64,000 nt of DNA from positions 28,393 through 92,392 of IMG/VR virus record IMGVR_UViG_3300034418_009484. The stretch is one strand, 5' to 3'. The position numbers and the translations under genes were made by a program. This document shows positions 2,405 to 28,687 of the stretch, piece by piece. A model generated the notes under the pieces. That model did not search any database. It was not told the DNA's origin and saw nothing but the letters and a program-made list of their open reading frames with translations. The number at the start of each line of letters is the position of its first letter. The first letter of the stretch is position 1. The DNA is from a virus.

Positions 2405-3180
2405 AATTTCATTTCCTCTATAATCATTTTAGCATAATCTTTATAAGTCTTAATATTTTTTTCAATTTTAAATTCTTGTGTTTTATTGACCACTTTTTTA
2501 CAGATGGAAAATAATTCTTGTGTATTATTCCACTGGTATTCTTTTTTCTCGTCTTTAATATTAAATGATATAGGTAATATTTCCGAAGATAGACATGTCA
2601 TATCCCATTCATCATTTAATGATATTATTGCTTTTGTAGATTTAAAAACATTGTTGTAATCCGCTTCGCCAATGTTGCCAATATAGTATGGTGAATTAAC
2701 TTTGTGTTTACCAATAATTTTTAAATTGAAGTTATCTCCTATTAGATTTAGAATATTATTTATATCCATACTTGTTTTTAACGTATTTGAAATAAATATA
2801 AAATCTGAATCAAATTTATTATCAAACTTTCCTTCATCTGTAATCATTACATCATTATGCAAGAAGGGCATAAAGTTTTCTTCTTTTTCATTAAATGCAT
2901 TTATTATGTAGTCAAATAAATGGTCAAATTTTGGATCAGTTGGCTTGTCTTTTATTAGGCATATCTTTATATTTGGATTTTCTGCTTTTACATAGTCTAT
3001 GTATATGTAATCTAAGCTAGAACTATCAACGAATATTAAATCTGGCTTAGATATTTCTATAAAGTCAAATATATTTTGTTTTCTTAAATTTACAAAAAAT
3101 GCTTCATTTATTAACTTTTCTATTGCTTGTGCAAATCCAATTATTTTTGGATTATCTGTAGCAGTAAAATATATTCTCAT
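2401..3180 (-). CDS. Divergent glycosyltransferase-like protein (GT-B/CgeB-like)
   Basis: KPDLIFVD, DFIFIS, NVFKSTKAIIS pattern of GT-B proteins. Confidence 0.45.
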   Translation of the reverse strand: MRIYFTATDNPKIIGFAQAIEKLINEAFFVNLRKQNIFDFIEISKPDLIFVDSSSLDYIYIDYVKAENPNIKICLIKDKPTDPKFDHLFDYIINAFNEKEENFMPFLHNDVMITDEGKFDNKFDSDFIFISNTLKTSMDINNILNLIGDNFNLKIIGKHKVNSPYYIGNIGEADYNNVFKSTKAIISLNDEWDMTCLSSEILPISFNIKDEKKEYQWNNTQELFSICKKVVNKTQEFKIEKNIKTYKDYAKMIIEEMKL

Positions 3181-3890
3181 ATTATTCCTTTTACTAATTC
3201 TATGTCTTTATAACTGTCAATATCAATTACCTTGGCGTTTTTATCATTAAAAACATTGATTGATCCACCGTAATTAATGATACTGTTTATAACTTCAAAA
3301 CCAAATAGGTTATAGTTATCTGGATTCCAACATATTTTTTTTAATAGTTTTAATTCGTATCCCTTAAAAAATGATATTTGCCCCCATTTAATTTCTAGGT
3401 CATACATCATATTTTCTACTGTAAGTCTGTTATTTATGGTACATCCCACTTCATTTTTTTTCATGATATTTTTTGACGCAACAATTCCAGAATGATTAAA
3501 TTTAATACATTCCAAACATTCGTTATTAAATATCAAGTCTCCATATATCACCAATACATTATTTTTTGAGGCTCTTAATCCTATTCCTATAGACCTTGCT
3601 ACGTTAGTAGAGTCATACGATTCATTTTCAATTTTAACAATACTATCTGGAGAATAATCCATTAATTCATCAGACTTAAATCCTGTTATTAATATTATGT
3701 TTGCTTCTGGAAAAAACTTTTTTATTTTTTCTAATTGTAAATCTAATATTGTTTTTTCTTTATAGACTTTTATTAAAGATTTTGCCCCATAGGATTTCAT
3801 CCTTTTGCCTAATCCGGCAGCGGGGATTATTATGTCTAATTCTGAAAAATTTAGATCTTGTTTTATATTTCTAGAGTATCGTCTTGACAT
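3177..3890 (-). CDS. Sugar/choline-phosphate nucleotidyltransferase (LicC/NTP_transf_3-like)
   Basis: IIIPAAGLGKRMKSYGAKSLI, YGDLIF, IDIDSYKD. Confidence 0.85.
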   Translation of the reverse strand: MSRRYSRNIKQDLNFSELDIIIPAAGLGKRMKSYGAKSLIKVYKEKTILDLQLEKIKKFFPEANIILITGFKSDELMDYSPDSIVKIENESYDSTNVARSIGIGLRASKNNVLVIYGDLIFNNECLECIKFNHSGIVASKNIMKKNEVGCTINNRLTVENMMYDLEIKWGQISFFKGYELKLLKKICWNPDNYNLFGFEVINSIINYGGSINVFNDKNAKVIDIDSYKDIELVKGII

Positions 3891-25626: not shown

Positions 25627-28137
25627 CTAACATTTGGACCAACCACATTTTGTACAAGTAACACATCCTTCCTGCCTAATCAATGAGTCTTGTTCACATT
25701 CTGGACAATATCCCTCTTCCTCTGATCCATCTGGTATATATTTTTTTAATGCTCTTGCCATACTCTTTGCAAAAGAATTCATATCTCCTTTTACTTTCTC
25801 TAATTGTTGAACAATCATTTGAGTATCTGCACCGCTTCTAAGTGCTGTAGAAGTCATTCTTGTCAAAGCATCTTCTTCTTCACTACAAGTTTGATTTATC
25901 GGAGAAAGCTCAAGACCATCTTCTAAGATTGCTTTATAAACACCTTTTGGACGACCTAGTTTTATGATTTTTCCGGTTTTAATTTTTTTGTCGATAAATC
26001 CATTTTTACCAGCAAACACCTCATATACCTGACCTTCATATAGCCCAACAAGAACAAAGTATTCTTCACCTTTTACTTTTATATGATAAACATCACATTT
26101 TAGTTCTTTTGGTCTTTCCTCTGGGAGTTTTTCTTCTTTATTATCAATAGAAGAATTAGCAGAAAGAACAGCAGTCATTGTTCCTGCTCTATAGGTCGTA
26201 AATCCTTTTATTCCTTTTTTCCATGCCTTATTGTAAACTTCTTTAAAGTCTTCATATGGATAATCATTTGGTAGATTGATTGTTTTAGAAATAGCTGAAT
26301 CAACCCAATTAGCAAATATTGACATTGTATTAACATGAGAATCAACATCAAGATCCATAGTGCAAGACGCCCAATTAGCATCAGCAGACCATTTTTTATT
26401 CCTCCTTAAATAAGATACACCATAATCTTCTATCCATTCTTCTTTTAAAAGACCTCTTGTACGATCAAATTTCCACACTTTCCCTTCAAATTCTGTTGCA
26501 AGAAGATTCTCATCCCCTTCTTTTACCCATTTCCAATCAGTATGAGGACTTCCATTATATTTTTCTAAATCAAATTTTTTATTTTCCCAGTCAACATTTT
26601 TAGGACTTGCCAAGCCATCTGGAACCGTTGGTTGAATAGATGTTCTAAAATATCCATGCATAAATAGAGGTTCAAGACCACCGCTGACTAAGTTTGCATA
26701 ACAAGAACTATTGCCAGTCGGCTGAATAGAAGTAACGTGTGAGTTTCTTATTCCATATTTTTTTATTAGTCCAACCGTATCAACATTTAAATTTTTAATA
26801 AATTCGCCATCAAGATACTTATCTTTATCGAATAGGGGAAAAGCTCCTTTTTCTTTAGCTAAAAATGAAGAAGCTTTGTATGCTTCATTTGTAAAAAACC
26901 TCATAAGATTTTCTGTCATTTCTAAAGCTTTCTTGCTTCCATACTTTACCCTAGCCATCATCAATGCTGAACCATACCCCATAACACCAAGACCTATTCT
27001 TCTTTTATCAATCAGATTTTTCTTTTGAGATTTTAGAGGAACATTTGTTTTGTCATTAACATTATCCATAAATCTTATCGCAATATGTATACATCTTTCT
27101 AACTCATCATATTTCCAGTCTTTATTTTCTGGATCAATAAAATGAACTAAATTAATAGACCCTAACAAACAAACACCCCCGATGGGTAATACCTGTTCAC
27201 CACATGGGTTTGTAGCATTAATATTTTCACAATAATGAAGATTGTTCATCTTGTTCATATTGTCAATAAAAAGAACCCCCGGTTCATTTCTATTATATGT
27301 ATTATCCATAATTAGATTCCACAAATCTCTTGCAGAATCAAAGGTGTGGTAGGGAACGCATGGAGATTTATCGCTTTCGTCACTAGCCTCTGCCAGTTTT
27401 ACCCATTTTTTAAGATCTCCATCCCATTCTTTTTTATAAAGATTTGGGTAATCTTCATAGTTTGGAAACCATAAAAACCATGCTTGGTCTTTTTTAACAG
27501 CTTCCATAAAATCATCTGTACATAAAACAGACATATTAAATTTAGATAACCGTCCTGGCGTTCTTTTTGCTTCAATATATTCAATAATATCTGGATGCCA
27601 GCAACTCATAGTTACCATTTGCGCACCCTTTCTGATAAAATTCTTTTGGTCTTTTCTTGACTTTTTGCTTGATCCTGCTGTAATAATCTCTGATGATTTG
27701 TCCCATAACTCTAAGAACTTTACAGAACCGGGAGACTGGTTTGCAATTCCTCCAATATGTGAACCGCAAGGACGCATTACATCTGCACAAAATCCATAGC
27801 CTCCTTCGCTTTTTAAAATTTGTGCTTGTTTAGTTAGTGTAGAATAAATACCTTCGATAGAATCCAGATCAGTACCTTCAAAACCGTCAACAAAACAATT
27901 AATATAAGTCGTTCCCTTTAATCCAGTTCCAGCATTGCTTGTAATTCTTCCGCCTGGAACAAATTTAAAATCTTCTAATATCTCATAAAACCTTTCTTCA
28001 TATTTTTCTTTTTCTACTTCAACTGATGCTAAGTCTTTCGCAACTCTTCTCCAAGTGTCTTCAATATTTTTATCATCTCCAAATTTATATTTCTGATACC
28101 ATGTTTCTTCTGAAAATGAATTTGTAAATCTTGACAT
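25627..28137 (-). CDS. nrdJ: Class II (adenosylcobalamin-dependent) ribonucleotide reductase with C-terminal TSCPD/Zn-ribbon region
   Basis: PGGRI, NCF, EPGVLFID, TNPCGEQ, CLLGSINL, RRIGLG, QPTG, ISKTINLP, CPEC..CTKCGWSKC; no class I beta gene nearby. Confidence 0.92.
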   Translation of the reverse strand: MSRFTNSFSEETWYQKYKFGDDKNIEDTWRRVAKDLASVEVEKEKYEERFYEILEDFKFVPGGRITSNAGTGLKGTTYINCFVDGFEGTDLDSIEGIYSTLTKQAQILKSEGGYGFCADVMRPCGSHIGGIANQSPGSVKFLELWDKSSEIITAGSSKKSRKDQKNFIRKGAQMVTMSCWHPDIIEYIEAKRTPGRLSKFNMSVLCTDDFMEAVKKDQAWFLWFPNYEDYPNLYKKEWDGDLKKWVKLAEASDESDKSPCVPYHTFDSARDLWNLIMDNTYNRNEPGVLFIDNMNKMNNLHYCENINATNPCGEQVLPIGGVCLLGSINLVHFIDPENKDWKYDELERCIHIAIRFMDNVNDKTNVPLKSQKKNLIDKRRIGLGVMGYGSALMMARVKYGSKKALEMTENLMRFFTNEAYKASSFLAKEKGAFPLFDKDKYLDGEFIKNLNVDTVGLIKKYGIRNSHVTSIQPTGNSSCYANLVSGGLEPLFMHGYFRTSIQPTVPDGLASPKNVDWENKKFDLEKYNGSPHTDWKWVKEGDENLLATEFEGKVWKFDRTRGLLKEEWIEDYGVSYLRRNKKWSADANWASCTMDLDVDSHVNTMSIFANWVDSAISKTINLPNDYPYEDFKEVYNKAWKKGIKGFTTYRAGTMTAVLSANSSIDNKEEKLPEERPKELKCDVYHIKVKGEEYFVLVGLYEGQVYEVFAGKNGFIDKKIKTGKIIKLGRPKGVYKAILEDGLELSPINQTCSEEEDALTRMTSTALRSGADTQMIVQQLEKVKGDMNSFAKSMARALKKYIPDGSEEEGYCPECEQDSLIRQEGCVTCTKCGWSKC

Positions 28138-28160
28138 TAAAATCCTACTCCTATGTACAT

Positions 28161-28197
28161 AAAATTAAAGACCCATCTCGTTTTTGCGAAATGGGTC
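28161..28197 (-). terminator. Intrinsic terminator/attenuator directly upstream of nrdJ
   Basis: GACCCATTTCG-CAAAAA-CGAGATGGGTC-TTTAATTTT on the minus strand. Confidence 0.75.
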
Positions 28198-28379
28198 GTA
28201 ATTATTTTTTAAAAAGCAACACATGGGTTAACTAAATATACAAGTAATTTATAATTGTTTAATATTGAGTTAATAACTTTTAATAATTGTTTACTTCTAG
28301 TATTTAGCTTAATAATATTAGTCGAGATGTGTTGCTTTAACCTAATGTAAAAATTACAACTAAGCTTAATTTCTCGACC
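28161..28379 (-). ncRNA. Structured leader RNA (candidate riboswitch/attenuator)
   Basis: P1 28372-28379 with 28320-28327; 12-bp pseudoknot 28327-28338 with 28213-28224; further stems; starts 7 nt after TATAAT and ends in a terminator. Confidence 0.6.
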
Positions 28380-28385
28380 ATTATT

Positions 28386-28395
28386 ATTATACACC
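28386..28395 (-). promoter_or_regulatory. Putative promoter GGTGTATAAT (-10 box)
   Basis: Perfect TATAAT 6 nt before the first G of the leader RNA; GGTGTA core recurs at other gene boundaries. Confidence 0.6.
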
Positions 28396-28426
28396 TTGAA
28401 ATTTGTAATAGATTATTTAAATTTTA

Positions 28427-28639
28427 TTATCCGTATTTTTTTACGTTCTTATGAACGCAGTCACAATATGTTAAATTTTCAATTAATTTTTCATTCTTTT
28501 TAATTGTGCCATTTAAACTTGTATAGGTTTTATTTATTCCTCTACCTAGACATTTCTTACATTTAGAAGAAGCATACATATCTGCAACATCATAATCTAT
28601 TGTAGTTGTGTATGTAAAGCCTTTTGATTTATTTTTCAT
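28427..28639 (-). CDS. Small Zn-finger protein
   Basis: CKKCLGRG..YCDC; GGAG RBS. Confidence 0.65.
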   Translation of the reverse strand: MKNKSKGFTYTTTIDYDVADMYASSKCKKCLGRGINKTYTSLNGTIKKNEKLIENLTYCDCVHKNVKKYG

Positions 28640-28651
28640 TTATATCTCCAC

Positions 28652-28687
28652 AAAAAAAGCGAGGTGCAACATTTAATTGTACCTCGC
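28652..28687 (-). terminator. Intrinsic terminator
   Basis: GCGAGGTACAA-loop-TTGCACCTCGC-TTTTTTT on the minus strand. Confidence 0.85.

Follow-up and report, generated by a model that had tools for sequence, protein, structure and literature searches.

A candidate family of pseudoknotted leader RNAs upstream of phage ribonucleotide reductase genes

Introduction

How is a phage ribonucleotide reductase (RNR) gene controlled when a structured non-coding region ending in a terminator lies directly in front of it? RNR supplies DNA precursors and is among the commonest metabolic genes carried by phages, and to our knowledge the way in which phages regulate it is largely unknown. The question is raised by IMG/VR virus record IMGVR_UViG_3300034418_009484 (92 kb, estimated to be 59% complete, about 31% G+C). 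We analysed a stretch of 64,000 nucleotides of this record (positions 28,393 to 92,392), referred to here as the window, in which a 289-nt gap separates a 70-aa open reading frame (ORF; 28427–28639, minus strand) from an 836-aa gene (25627–28137, minus strand). The 836-aa product contains the Pfam RNR barrel, all-alpha and TSCPD domains and is therefore a class II reductase, NrdJ. NrdJ requires adenosylcobalamin, hence vitamin B12 is the obvious first guess for a signal. A sequence-only reading of the gap had proposed a promoter-proximal, pseudoknotted leader that ends in a terminator and acts as a new transcriptional switch. Here, we examine the structure of this leader, its copies in other phages, its linkage to RNR genes and the ways in which it might act.

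Results

A pseudoknotted leader ends in a terminator immediately before nrdJ

The elements of the region in the window are as follows.

28386–28393, minus strand: −10-like box TGTATAAT (presumed promoter), with a presumed transcription start near G28379
28372–28379, minus strand: 5′ strand of helix P1, GGUCGAGA, pairing with 28320–28327
28366–28371, minus strand: junction J1/2, with the divergent sequence AAUUAA in the window and the consensus AUAAAG in relatives
28340–28365, minus strand: hairpin P2, containing UGUAA/UUACA (from the fold); its closing pairs are the GUU of the conserved GUUAAAGC
28327–28338, minus strand: 5′ strand of the pseudoknot helix, AAAGCAACACAU, within the loop closed by P1 (inverted-repeat search)
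28320–28327, minus strand: 3′ strand of P1, UCUCGACU, pairing with the P1 5′ strand
28230–28309, minus strand: P3, a long, AT-rich, variable hairpin with the outer stem AGCUAAAUA (28309–28301)/UAUUUAGUU (28238–28230), from the fold
28213–28224, minus strand: 3′ strand of the pseudoknot helix, AUGUGUUGCUUU (inverted-repeat search, and pairing in relatives)
28198–28212, minus strand: linker made up of the remaining U-run (UU), an A-run and UUAC
28161–28197, minus strand: intrinsic terminator T2, with an 11-bp stem, a 6-nt loop and the tail UUUAAUUUU (terminator scan)
25627–28152, minus strand: ribosome binding site (RBS; AGGAG, 28152–28148) and nrdJ, with its ATG at 28137 (ORF list and Pfam)

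The TATAAT hexamer (28391–28386, minus strand) is directly adjoined by a preceding TG, giving TGTATAAT. Since this TG abuts TATAAT without a spacer, the box is not a textbook TGnTATAAT extended −10 element. The hexamer, P1, the UGUAA/UUACA hairpin and the inner stem described in the sequence-only reading were each found in place, as was its perfect 12-bp pseudoknot helix, AAAGCAACACAU/AUGUGUUGCUUU, which an inverted-repeat search recovered independently. P1 closes a loop that contains the 5′ strand of this long-range helix, so that the two helices cross and form an H-type pseudoknot. The two share U28327, which ends the 12-bp helix and begins the 3′ strand of P1. Folding of the 220-nt RNA gave −48.6 kcal/mol compared with −29.2 ± 3.9 kcal/mol for dinucleotide shuffles (z = −4.96), and none of 200 shuffles folded as well.

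At the 3′ end of the leader, the terminator scan recovered the expected 11-bp hairpin just before the nrdJ RBS. The T2 stem (28197–28170) has 6 GC pairs among its 11 bp, as an intrinsic (Rho-independent) terminator should. The nrdJ ATG follows 23 nt past the T2 tail and both RBS and ATG are within 32 nt of the terminator, a space that in the window is too short for another promoter. Therefore, nrdJ must be transcribed by read-through of T2. A promoter-proximal, pseudoknotted leader that ends in a terminator 5′ of nrdJ is thus well supported, and we also considered whether the region might be coding. This reading was rejected: a 61-aa ORF with a GTG start (28209–28394) differs from the closest relative by five separate 1-nt indels and has no conserved frame, and the median stop-free stretch in the leader is 31.5 codons.

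Further upstream, at 28659–28687 (minus strand), a GC-rich hairpin (of the type GCGAGGUGCAA.. / ..UUGUACCUCGC) followed by T7 lies directly 5′ of the RBS of the 70-aa ORF. Terminators immediately 5′ of genes therefore recur in this phage.

Leader copies precede RNR genes of several families

Copies of the leader were gathered from the loci of NrdJ relatives, then by core-pattern scans and then by covariance-model (CM) searches. The scan pattern consisted of the conserved core GTTAAAGCRRCAC, a gap and GTGTYGC, and was run on viral, metagenome and prokaryote sequences. The CM was built from the 5′ domain and recovered more divergent copies 5′ of other RNR genes. In total, 56 non-identical copies from viral (IMG/VR) and metagenome contigs were analysed. 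All 56 lie on the coding strand, 30–500 nt 5′ of an RNR large-subunit gene and co-oriented with it. The RNR genes behind the leader belong to at least three families and comprise the NrdJ of the window, an 827-aa NrdJ-like protein, an ATP-cone NrdA and one more type, whose nearest annotated phage relatives are named ribonucleoside-triphosphate reductases. Such a consistent association with the genes of one pathway is what is expected of a riboswitch. In each of five phage records, including a complete 130.8-kb genome, there was exactly one copy.

Among NrdJ relatives at 68–91% identity, most loci have the same arrangement 5′ of nrdJ. The leader is missing in about half of related RNR loci and is therefore dispensable. 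In leaderless NrdJ relatives (71–78% identity; L009–L013, L033 and L034, at ∼2550–3000), a dCMP-deaminase-like gene reaches the nrdJ RBS, and gain or loss of the leader between close relatives has therefore involved the whole element.

A blastn search of the region against 50,697 phage records gave no match, and the nearest cultured-phage RNRs are <56% identical. The exact-core pattern was matched six times in 185,579 prokaryote genomes, each time in coding-like DNA without promoter box, P1 or terminator, and only one of these matches reached even a partial CM score (19.5 bits). We count the six as chance matches; at this stringency, therefore, neither a host nor a prophage copy is indicated.

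In many copies, a small, very basic protein (68–123 aa) is encoded between the leader and the RNR gene (L105:2128–2337 (minus strand), L136:2092–2394, L023:2757–2993, L114:6801–7091, L149:132–386 (minus strand) and others). These proteins share the core FE.x.V.RD..G.PTGKKK, followed by a Lys/Arg-rich tail, and matched no Pfam or PHROG family. They could be RNA-binding partners of the leader. As an obligatory partner, the protein is ruled out by the absence of its ORF from the 92-kb record of the window; among nrdJ-type copies, the ORF is present in L023 only.

Two further features of these loci were observed. A gene for a PhoH-like ATPase (GPAGTGKTHLA ... RPVVEAGE.IGFLPG) lies 3′ of the RNR gene, ∼2.7–2.9 kb past the leader, in L114, L136 and L152. 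Some RNR genes are 300–350 aa longer than their relatives, or match over 3.4 kb (L031:3001–6390, L140 (1177 aa) and L022:14–3484), probably due to inteins or other insertions.

Covariation supports P1, the base of P2 and the pseudoknot

Covariation in homologous leaders was the test that the sequence-only reading had named for its structure, and it was found for P1, the P2 base and the pseudoknot. P1 has ∼20 different sequences in the relatives, all of which pair when helices are taken sequence by sequence (e.g. GGUCGAGA/UCUCGACU, GGCUGGAG/CUCCGGUC, GUGGGGCA/UGCUCCGC and AGACUAAAG/CUUUAGUCU). MAFFT alone left the P1 strands out of register, and the P1 statistics are taken from these per-sequence helices and from the CM alignment. 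In the CM alignment, which is fitted to the model and biased towards structure, all 8 pairs of P1 had changes on both sides, double-changed cells numbered 124 compared with 48.9 ± 8.1 in shuffles (0/500), and 75.7% of cells paired compared with at most 46% with slid partners; the per-sequence helices are free of that bias.

At the base of P2, ARCG pairs with the CGUU of CGUUAAAGC, and the two sides are jointly altered to AGCG/CGCU or AACA/UGUU. The pseudoknot helix AAAGCGRCAC/GUGYCGCUUU preserves 8–10 of its 10 pairs in 56/56 copies. For the pseudoknot and the P2 base together, 93.5% of cells pair in the MAFFT alignment (at most 46.6% when slid), with 27 double-changed cells compared with 3.7 ± 3.0 in shuffles (0/500). 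Compensatory changes in the pseudoknot include AGAGC/GCUCU and GCA/UGC, in addition to G-U to G-C shifts and one U-G. The GCA/UGC variant is shared by nrdJ phages (the window and L006) and L214, an nrdA phage of the ATP-cone type. Owing to the abundance of G-U pairs, the structure is strand-specific: it belongs to the coding strand, and hence to RNA. An inverted repeat acting at the DNA level (origin or operator) was rejected, as these G-U pairs would be mismatches on the other strand.

Outside the helices, relatives show almost no variation in the junction strands AUAAAG and UUAAAG.... In the AUAAAGA of J1/2, A, G and A are conserved at ≥90% in the alignments, and junctions and pseudoknot together hold ∼35 nearly invariant nucleotides. 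The hairpins around this core vary. The upper part of P2 ranges from 0 to ∼70 nt, being reduced to a 4-bp stub in L155 and carrying a ∼70-nt insertion in L140. P3 (∼100 nt) is AT-rich and variable in both sequence and length; it has one double change, C-G to U-A, between the window and its closest relative L006, and it is absent in L189, where the pseudoknot strands are 33 nt apart. Covarying helices and invariant junctions in a structured 5′-leader domain are features of riboswitches.

These patterns also bear on whether the leader could be a constitutive 5′ structure without a sensor, which would protect the RNR mRNA from decay while its terminators fix a low level of read-through. The position of P1, at or beside the presumed +1 in all copies, agrees with such a role, as do terminators that look constitutive. 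However, the nearly invariant nucleotides of the junctions and pseudoknot far exceed the needs of a protective hairpin, and the presence of optional P2 and P3 elements around a fixed core suggests a specific binding surface. We consider purely constitutive protection quite improbable.

A promoter-like box lies at a conserved distance from P1

The exact 8-mer TGTATAAT is present in 32/56 copies. All but one of the remaining copies have TGTAnnnn, mostly with TAnnnT kept. From the end of the box to P1 there are 4–10 nt in 54/56 copies; given this conserved distance, P1 begins at or beside the presumed +1.

Some copies have a palindrome, AAAAGTTG-N4-CAACTTTT, ∼25–50 nt 5′ of the box (L008, L096 (∼3625–3650), L007, L087 and L016), with its centre ∼40 nt before the presumed start; in L152 and L167 its sequence is AAAGTG..CACTTT. 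This palindrome, which is not in the window copy, might serve a dimeric factor as an operator, or it might weakly terminate the gene upstream.

Terminators are widespread and show no conserved competition with P1

Termination signals are found at two places in the leader. A U-run follows the 3′ strand of the pseudoknot, with ≥5 U in the next 8 nt in 27/56 copies. A second hairpin terminator with a U-run, corresponding to T2, is present in ∼44/56 copies including the window (scan plus manual cases), and in copies that have it the order U-run, A-run, UYAC recurs. In L085, L105, L106, L135, L145, L195, L256, L241 and L242, the pseudoknot strand followed by 5–7 U is the sole terminator-like signal found before the gene, and in several lineages this terminator, formed by the pseudoknot helix and U-run, is 20–50 nt 5′ of the start codon. 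In these copies, the pseudoknot helix is predicted to double as the terminator stem. L155 (1070–1110) has neither U-run nor second terminator; the end of its pseudoknot 3′ strand, GCUUCC, is complementary to a later GGAGGC, and this copy may have a different (translational?) expression platform.

The sequence-only reading had placed the switch in P1, whose 5′ strand was to pair with the left arm of the terminator, and its 3′ strand with the right arm, in competition with P1 itself. In the window, the required complementarity is present: GGUCG matches CGACC, GGUCG...AAUUA can pair with UAAUUACGACC, and the window's own P1/terminator duplex is among the best 7% when compared with the terminators of other copies. 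This did not extend to the 42 copies with a separate terminator. For the P1 5′ strand and the left arm, pairing within a copy (−5.95 kcal/mol) was no better than pairing across copies (−6.00 kcal/mol), and for the P1 3′ strand and the right arm it was again no better than in mismatched copies (−6.04 own compared with −6.56 cross). The median rank of the own P1/terminator duplex was 0.57, with 2/42 in the best 10%. In contrast, the positive control, P1 5′ against P1 3′, paired truly (−12.7 own compared with −7.1 cross; 30/42 in the best 10%). Competition between P1 and the terminator arms is also impossible in copies that lack T2, and we give it almost no credence. Accordingly, the leader and the terminator of the originally proposed transcriptional switch stand, but its P1/terminator-arm antiterminator does not.

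A second candidate antiterminator, in which the 3′ pseudoknot strand and the A-run pair with CGAC/AAGC at the base of T2, was rejected: between the 3′ pseudoknot strand and the left arm of T2, local pairing was weak, at −1 to −6 kcal/mol, and did not exceed that of shuffles (mean z −0.5). Among the pairings compared across copies, no conserved alternative that disrupts T2 was found.

With no switching structure found, the leader could instead be a stand-alone small RNA gene (∼190–260 nt), complete with promoter and terminator. The RNA would be trans-acting, with targets such as host nucleotide metabolism, another RNA or a protein, and read-through into RNR would be incidental. A promoter-like box at a fixed distance, a paired 5′ end and a strong 3′ terminator would make a compact, stable RNA. 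Riboswitches seldom have a box co-conserved at a fixed distance, a feature that would also suit a self-contained small RNA gene. However, the strict position and orientation before RNR genes of at least three unrelated families are hard to explain in this way. In addition, several lineages have as their only terminator the pseudoknot helix and U-run close to the start codon, and in the window a separate promoter for the RNR gene would not fit. An independent small RNA is improbable in our judgement, although a serious rival.

The terminators also invite comparison with antitermination RNAs, such as lambda nut with N, HK022 put and the Bacillus EAR element, the last of which also has a pseudoknot. 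These RNAs head long operons; nut and put, which are phage elements, are present in two copies per genome. By analogy, the folded pseudoknot, acting either by itself or together with a factor from phage or host, would render the polymerase that made it resistant to the terminators that follow, via a protein or directly on RNA polymerase, and RNR would be expressed only from the leader promoter and only with the factor present. The layout is shared: a promoter, a structured RNA from +1, one or two terminators, and then the genes. Tandem terminators and the lack of detectable hairpin competition fit an action on polymerase, and the pseudoknot sequence is conserved beyond the needs of pairing, as expected of a recognition surface. 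The small, very basic ORF directly downstream in many copies could encode the RNA-binding partner. Against this, the record of the window lacks the ORF, as do all nrdJ-type copies other than L023, and phages of very different size and gene content would all need the same factor. Unlike nut, put and EAR, the leader is single-copy (five phage records), is specific to RNR rather than heading early or late operons, and matched no Rfam antitermination family, which sets it apart from this class. Antitermination of this kind is, on these grounds, an unlikely explanation but a serious rival.

The leader matches no described RNA family

Comparison of the whole window with Rfam 15 (4227 models, which include pseudoknot riboswitches, EAR and small ribozymes) using cmscan at gathering thresholds gave 0 matches. 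At E ≤ 10, cmscan of 28050–28500 returned no cobalamin, purine or 2′-deoxyguanosine (2′-dG) model. The best permissive overlap was between the terminator hairpin and the PyrG leader model, at 26 bits compared with a threshold of 65. The view that the leader has no cobalamin-riboswitch character was borne out, with no Rfam cobalamin model matched in either the strict or the permissive search. Cobalamin riboswitches upstream of nrd operons do resemble it as RNA leaders linked to RNR genes. In contrast to them, the leader has a conserved core of ∼35 nt, which is too small, and it is likewise found 5′ of ATP-cone RNR genes of class I type, which do not depend on B12.

H-type pseudoknots are also used by riboswitches such as SAM-II, preQ1-II, fluoride and similar. 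Like these, the leader has the 3′ strand of the pseudoknot beside an expression signal, a hairpin enclosed by one of the pseudoknot loops and junction strands, conserved and rich in purines, that might lie along the groove of a helix. It differs in its much longer helix (10–12 bp), in the ∼100-nt spacer hairpin in loop 3 and in having no sequence or model match to them.

No description of an RNR-linked phage RNA motif was found in the literature searched, which yielded only the known 2′-dG and B12 cases and unrelated phage riboswitches. The 2′-dG riboswitches of Mesoplasma florum are purine-riboswitch variants 5′ of RNR genes (PMC5435998). They and the leader are alike in being cis-acting (in the case of the leader, by prediction), in preceding an RNR gene and in ending in an intrinsic terminator, and they may share the logic of RNR control by a nucleotide-related signal. 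However, the 2′-dG riboswitch is a purine-type aptamer with a three-way junction, whereas the leader is a phage H-type pseudoknot with unrelated conserved sequence, its supported structure consisting of P1, P2 and a crossing long-range helix. Fremin et al. 2023 (PMC10690425) reported anonymous candidate structured RNAs from IMG/VR, with models averaging 67 nt. Its candidates share with the leader an intergenic IMG/VR source and the use of covariation and position upstream of genes as evidence. The text of the article mentions no RNR-linked motif, and a fragment of the leader may still be in its supplementary tables, undescribed. In conclusion, judged from sequence, the leader is a new RNA family relative to Rfam and the literature searched, with its own fold, conserved sequence and phage-RNR specificity, whereas its mode of action would be of a familiar kind, that of a riboswitch-like leader with a terminator.

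Discussion

Taken together, we lean towards the view that the leader represents a new RNA family of phages and acts on RNR transcription in cis. Regulation of RNR in cis, considered separately, is probable, and a riboswitch is a real possibility at somewhat less than even chance; we regard the leader as a strong candidate for a control element of a new, riboswitch-like kind.

We propose that the leader acts as follows. Transcription would start ∼7 nt past the TGTATAAT box, used as promoter, and the first ∼60 nt would fold as P1 and P2, with the conserved junction strands AUAAAG and (G)UUAAAGCGRCAC between them. The variable spacer hairpin of ∼100 nt would come next, after which GUGYCGCUUU would pair with the second junction strand and close the H-type pseudoknot. 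The polymerase would then meet the U-run after this helix and, in most phages including that of the window, a canonical terminator immediately 5′ of the RBS. As the leader and its terminators stand before the gene, RNR would be transcribed only by read-through, and the state of the 5′ domain would set how much polymerase terminates. In the most economical reading, the availability of the AAAGCGRCAC junction strand would decide termination at the pseudoknot U-run, and perhaps beyond. Whatever occupies the P1/P2 junction during transcription of the spacer would control this availability, and the long spacer would give the sensor time before the termination decision. Termination by default, with the signal turning expression on, is the direction that we favour.

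The signal is most likely a bound small molecule, and possibly a protein. Since the leader is single-copy and gene-specific across unrelated RNR families, a small-molecule signal in common is favoured over a protein that very different phages would have to share. More specifically, a new riboswitch class with the leader as its aptamer might sense an NDP/NTP substrate, a dNTP product or a deoxynucleoside, a proposal that we regard as doubtful.

Two observations count against cis-acting control by the leader as proposed here, namely that no conserved pairing was found to open T2 and that relatives can dispense with the leader. The GC-rich pseudoknot helix of 10–12 bp should form without ligand, and ligand control is not obvious from thermodynamics. 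Tandem terminators, moreover, are equally compatible with processive antitermination and with a riboswitch.

A supported pseudoknot, 56 natural variants, a clear gene linkage and termination before RNR as a read-out are now available. With a defined RNA, its variants and a simple read-out, the question is directly testable in vitro. If nucleotide sensing is true, uncultured aquatic phages would tune RNR transcription to the nucleotide pool of the host, and NrdR would be the protein equivalent of the leader; should a dNTP be the ligand, the leader would be the first natural dNTP-sensing RNA. More generally, binding of a small molecule would define a riboswitch class specific to phages and nucleotide reduction, and dependence on polymerase or a protein would define a new gene-specific antitermination device. 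Either way, the leader would be a compact regulatory part from uncultured viruses that is missing in current RNA family libraries.
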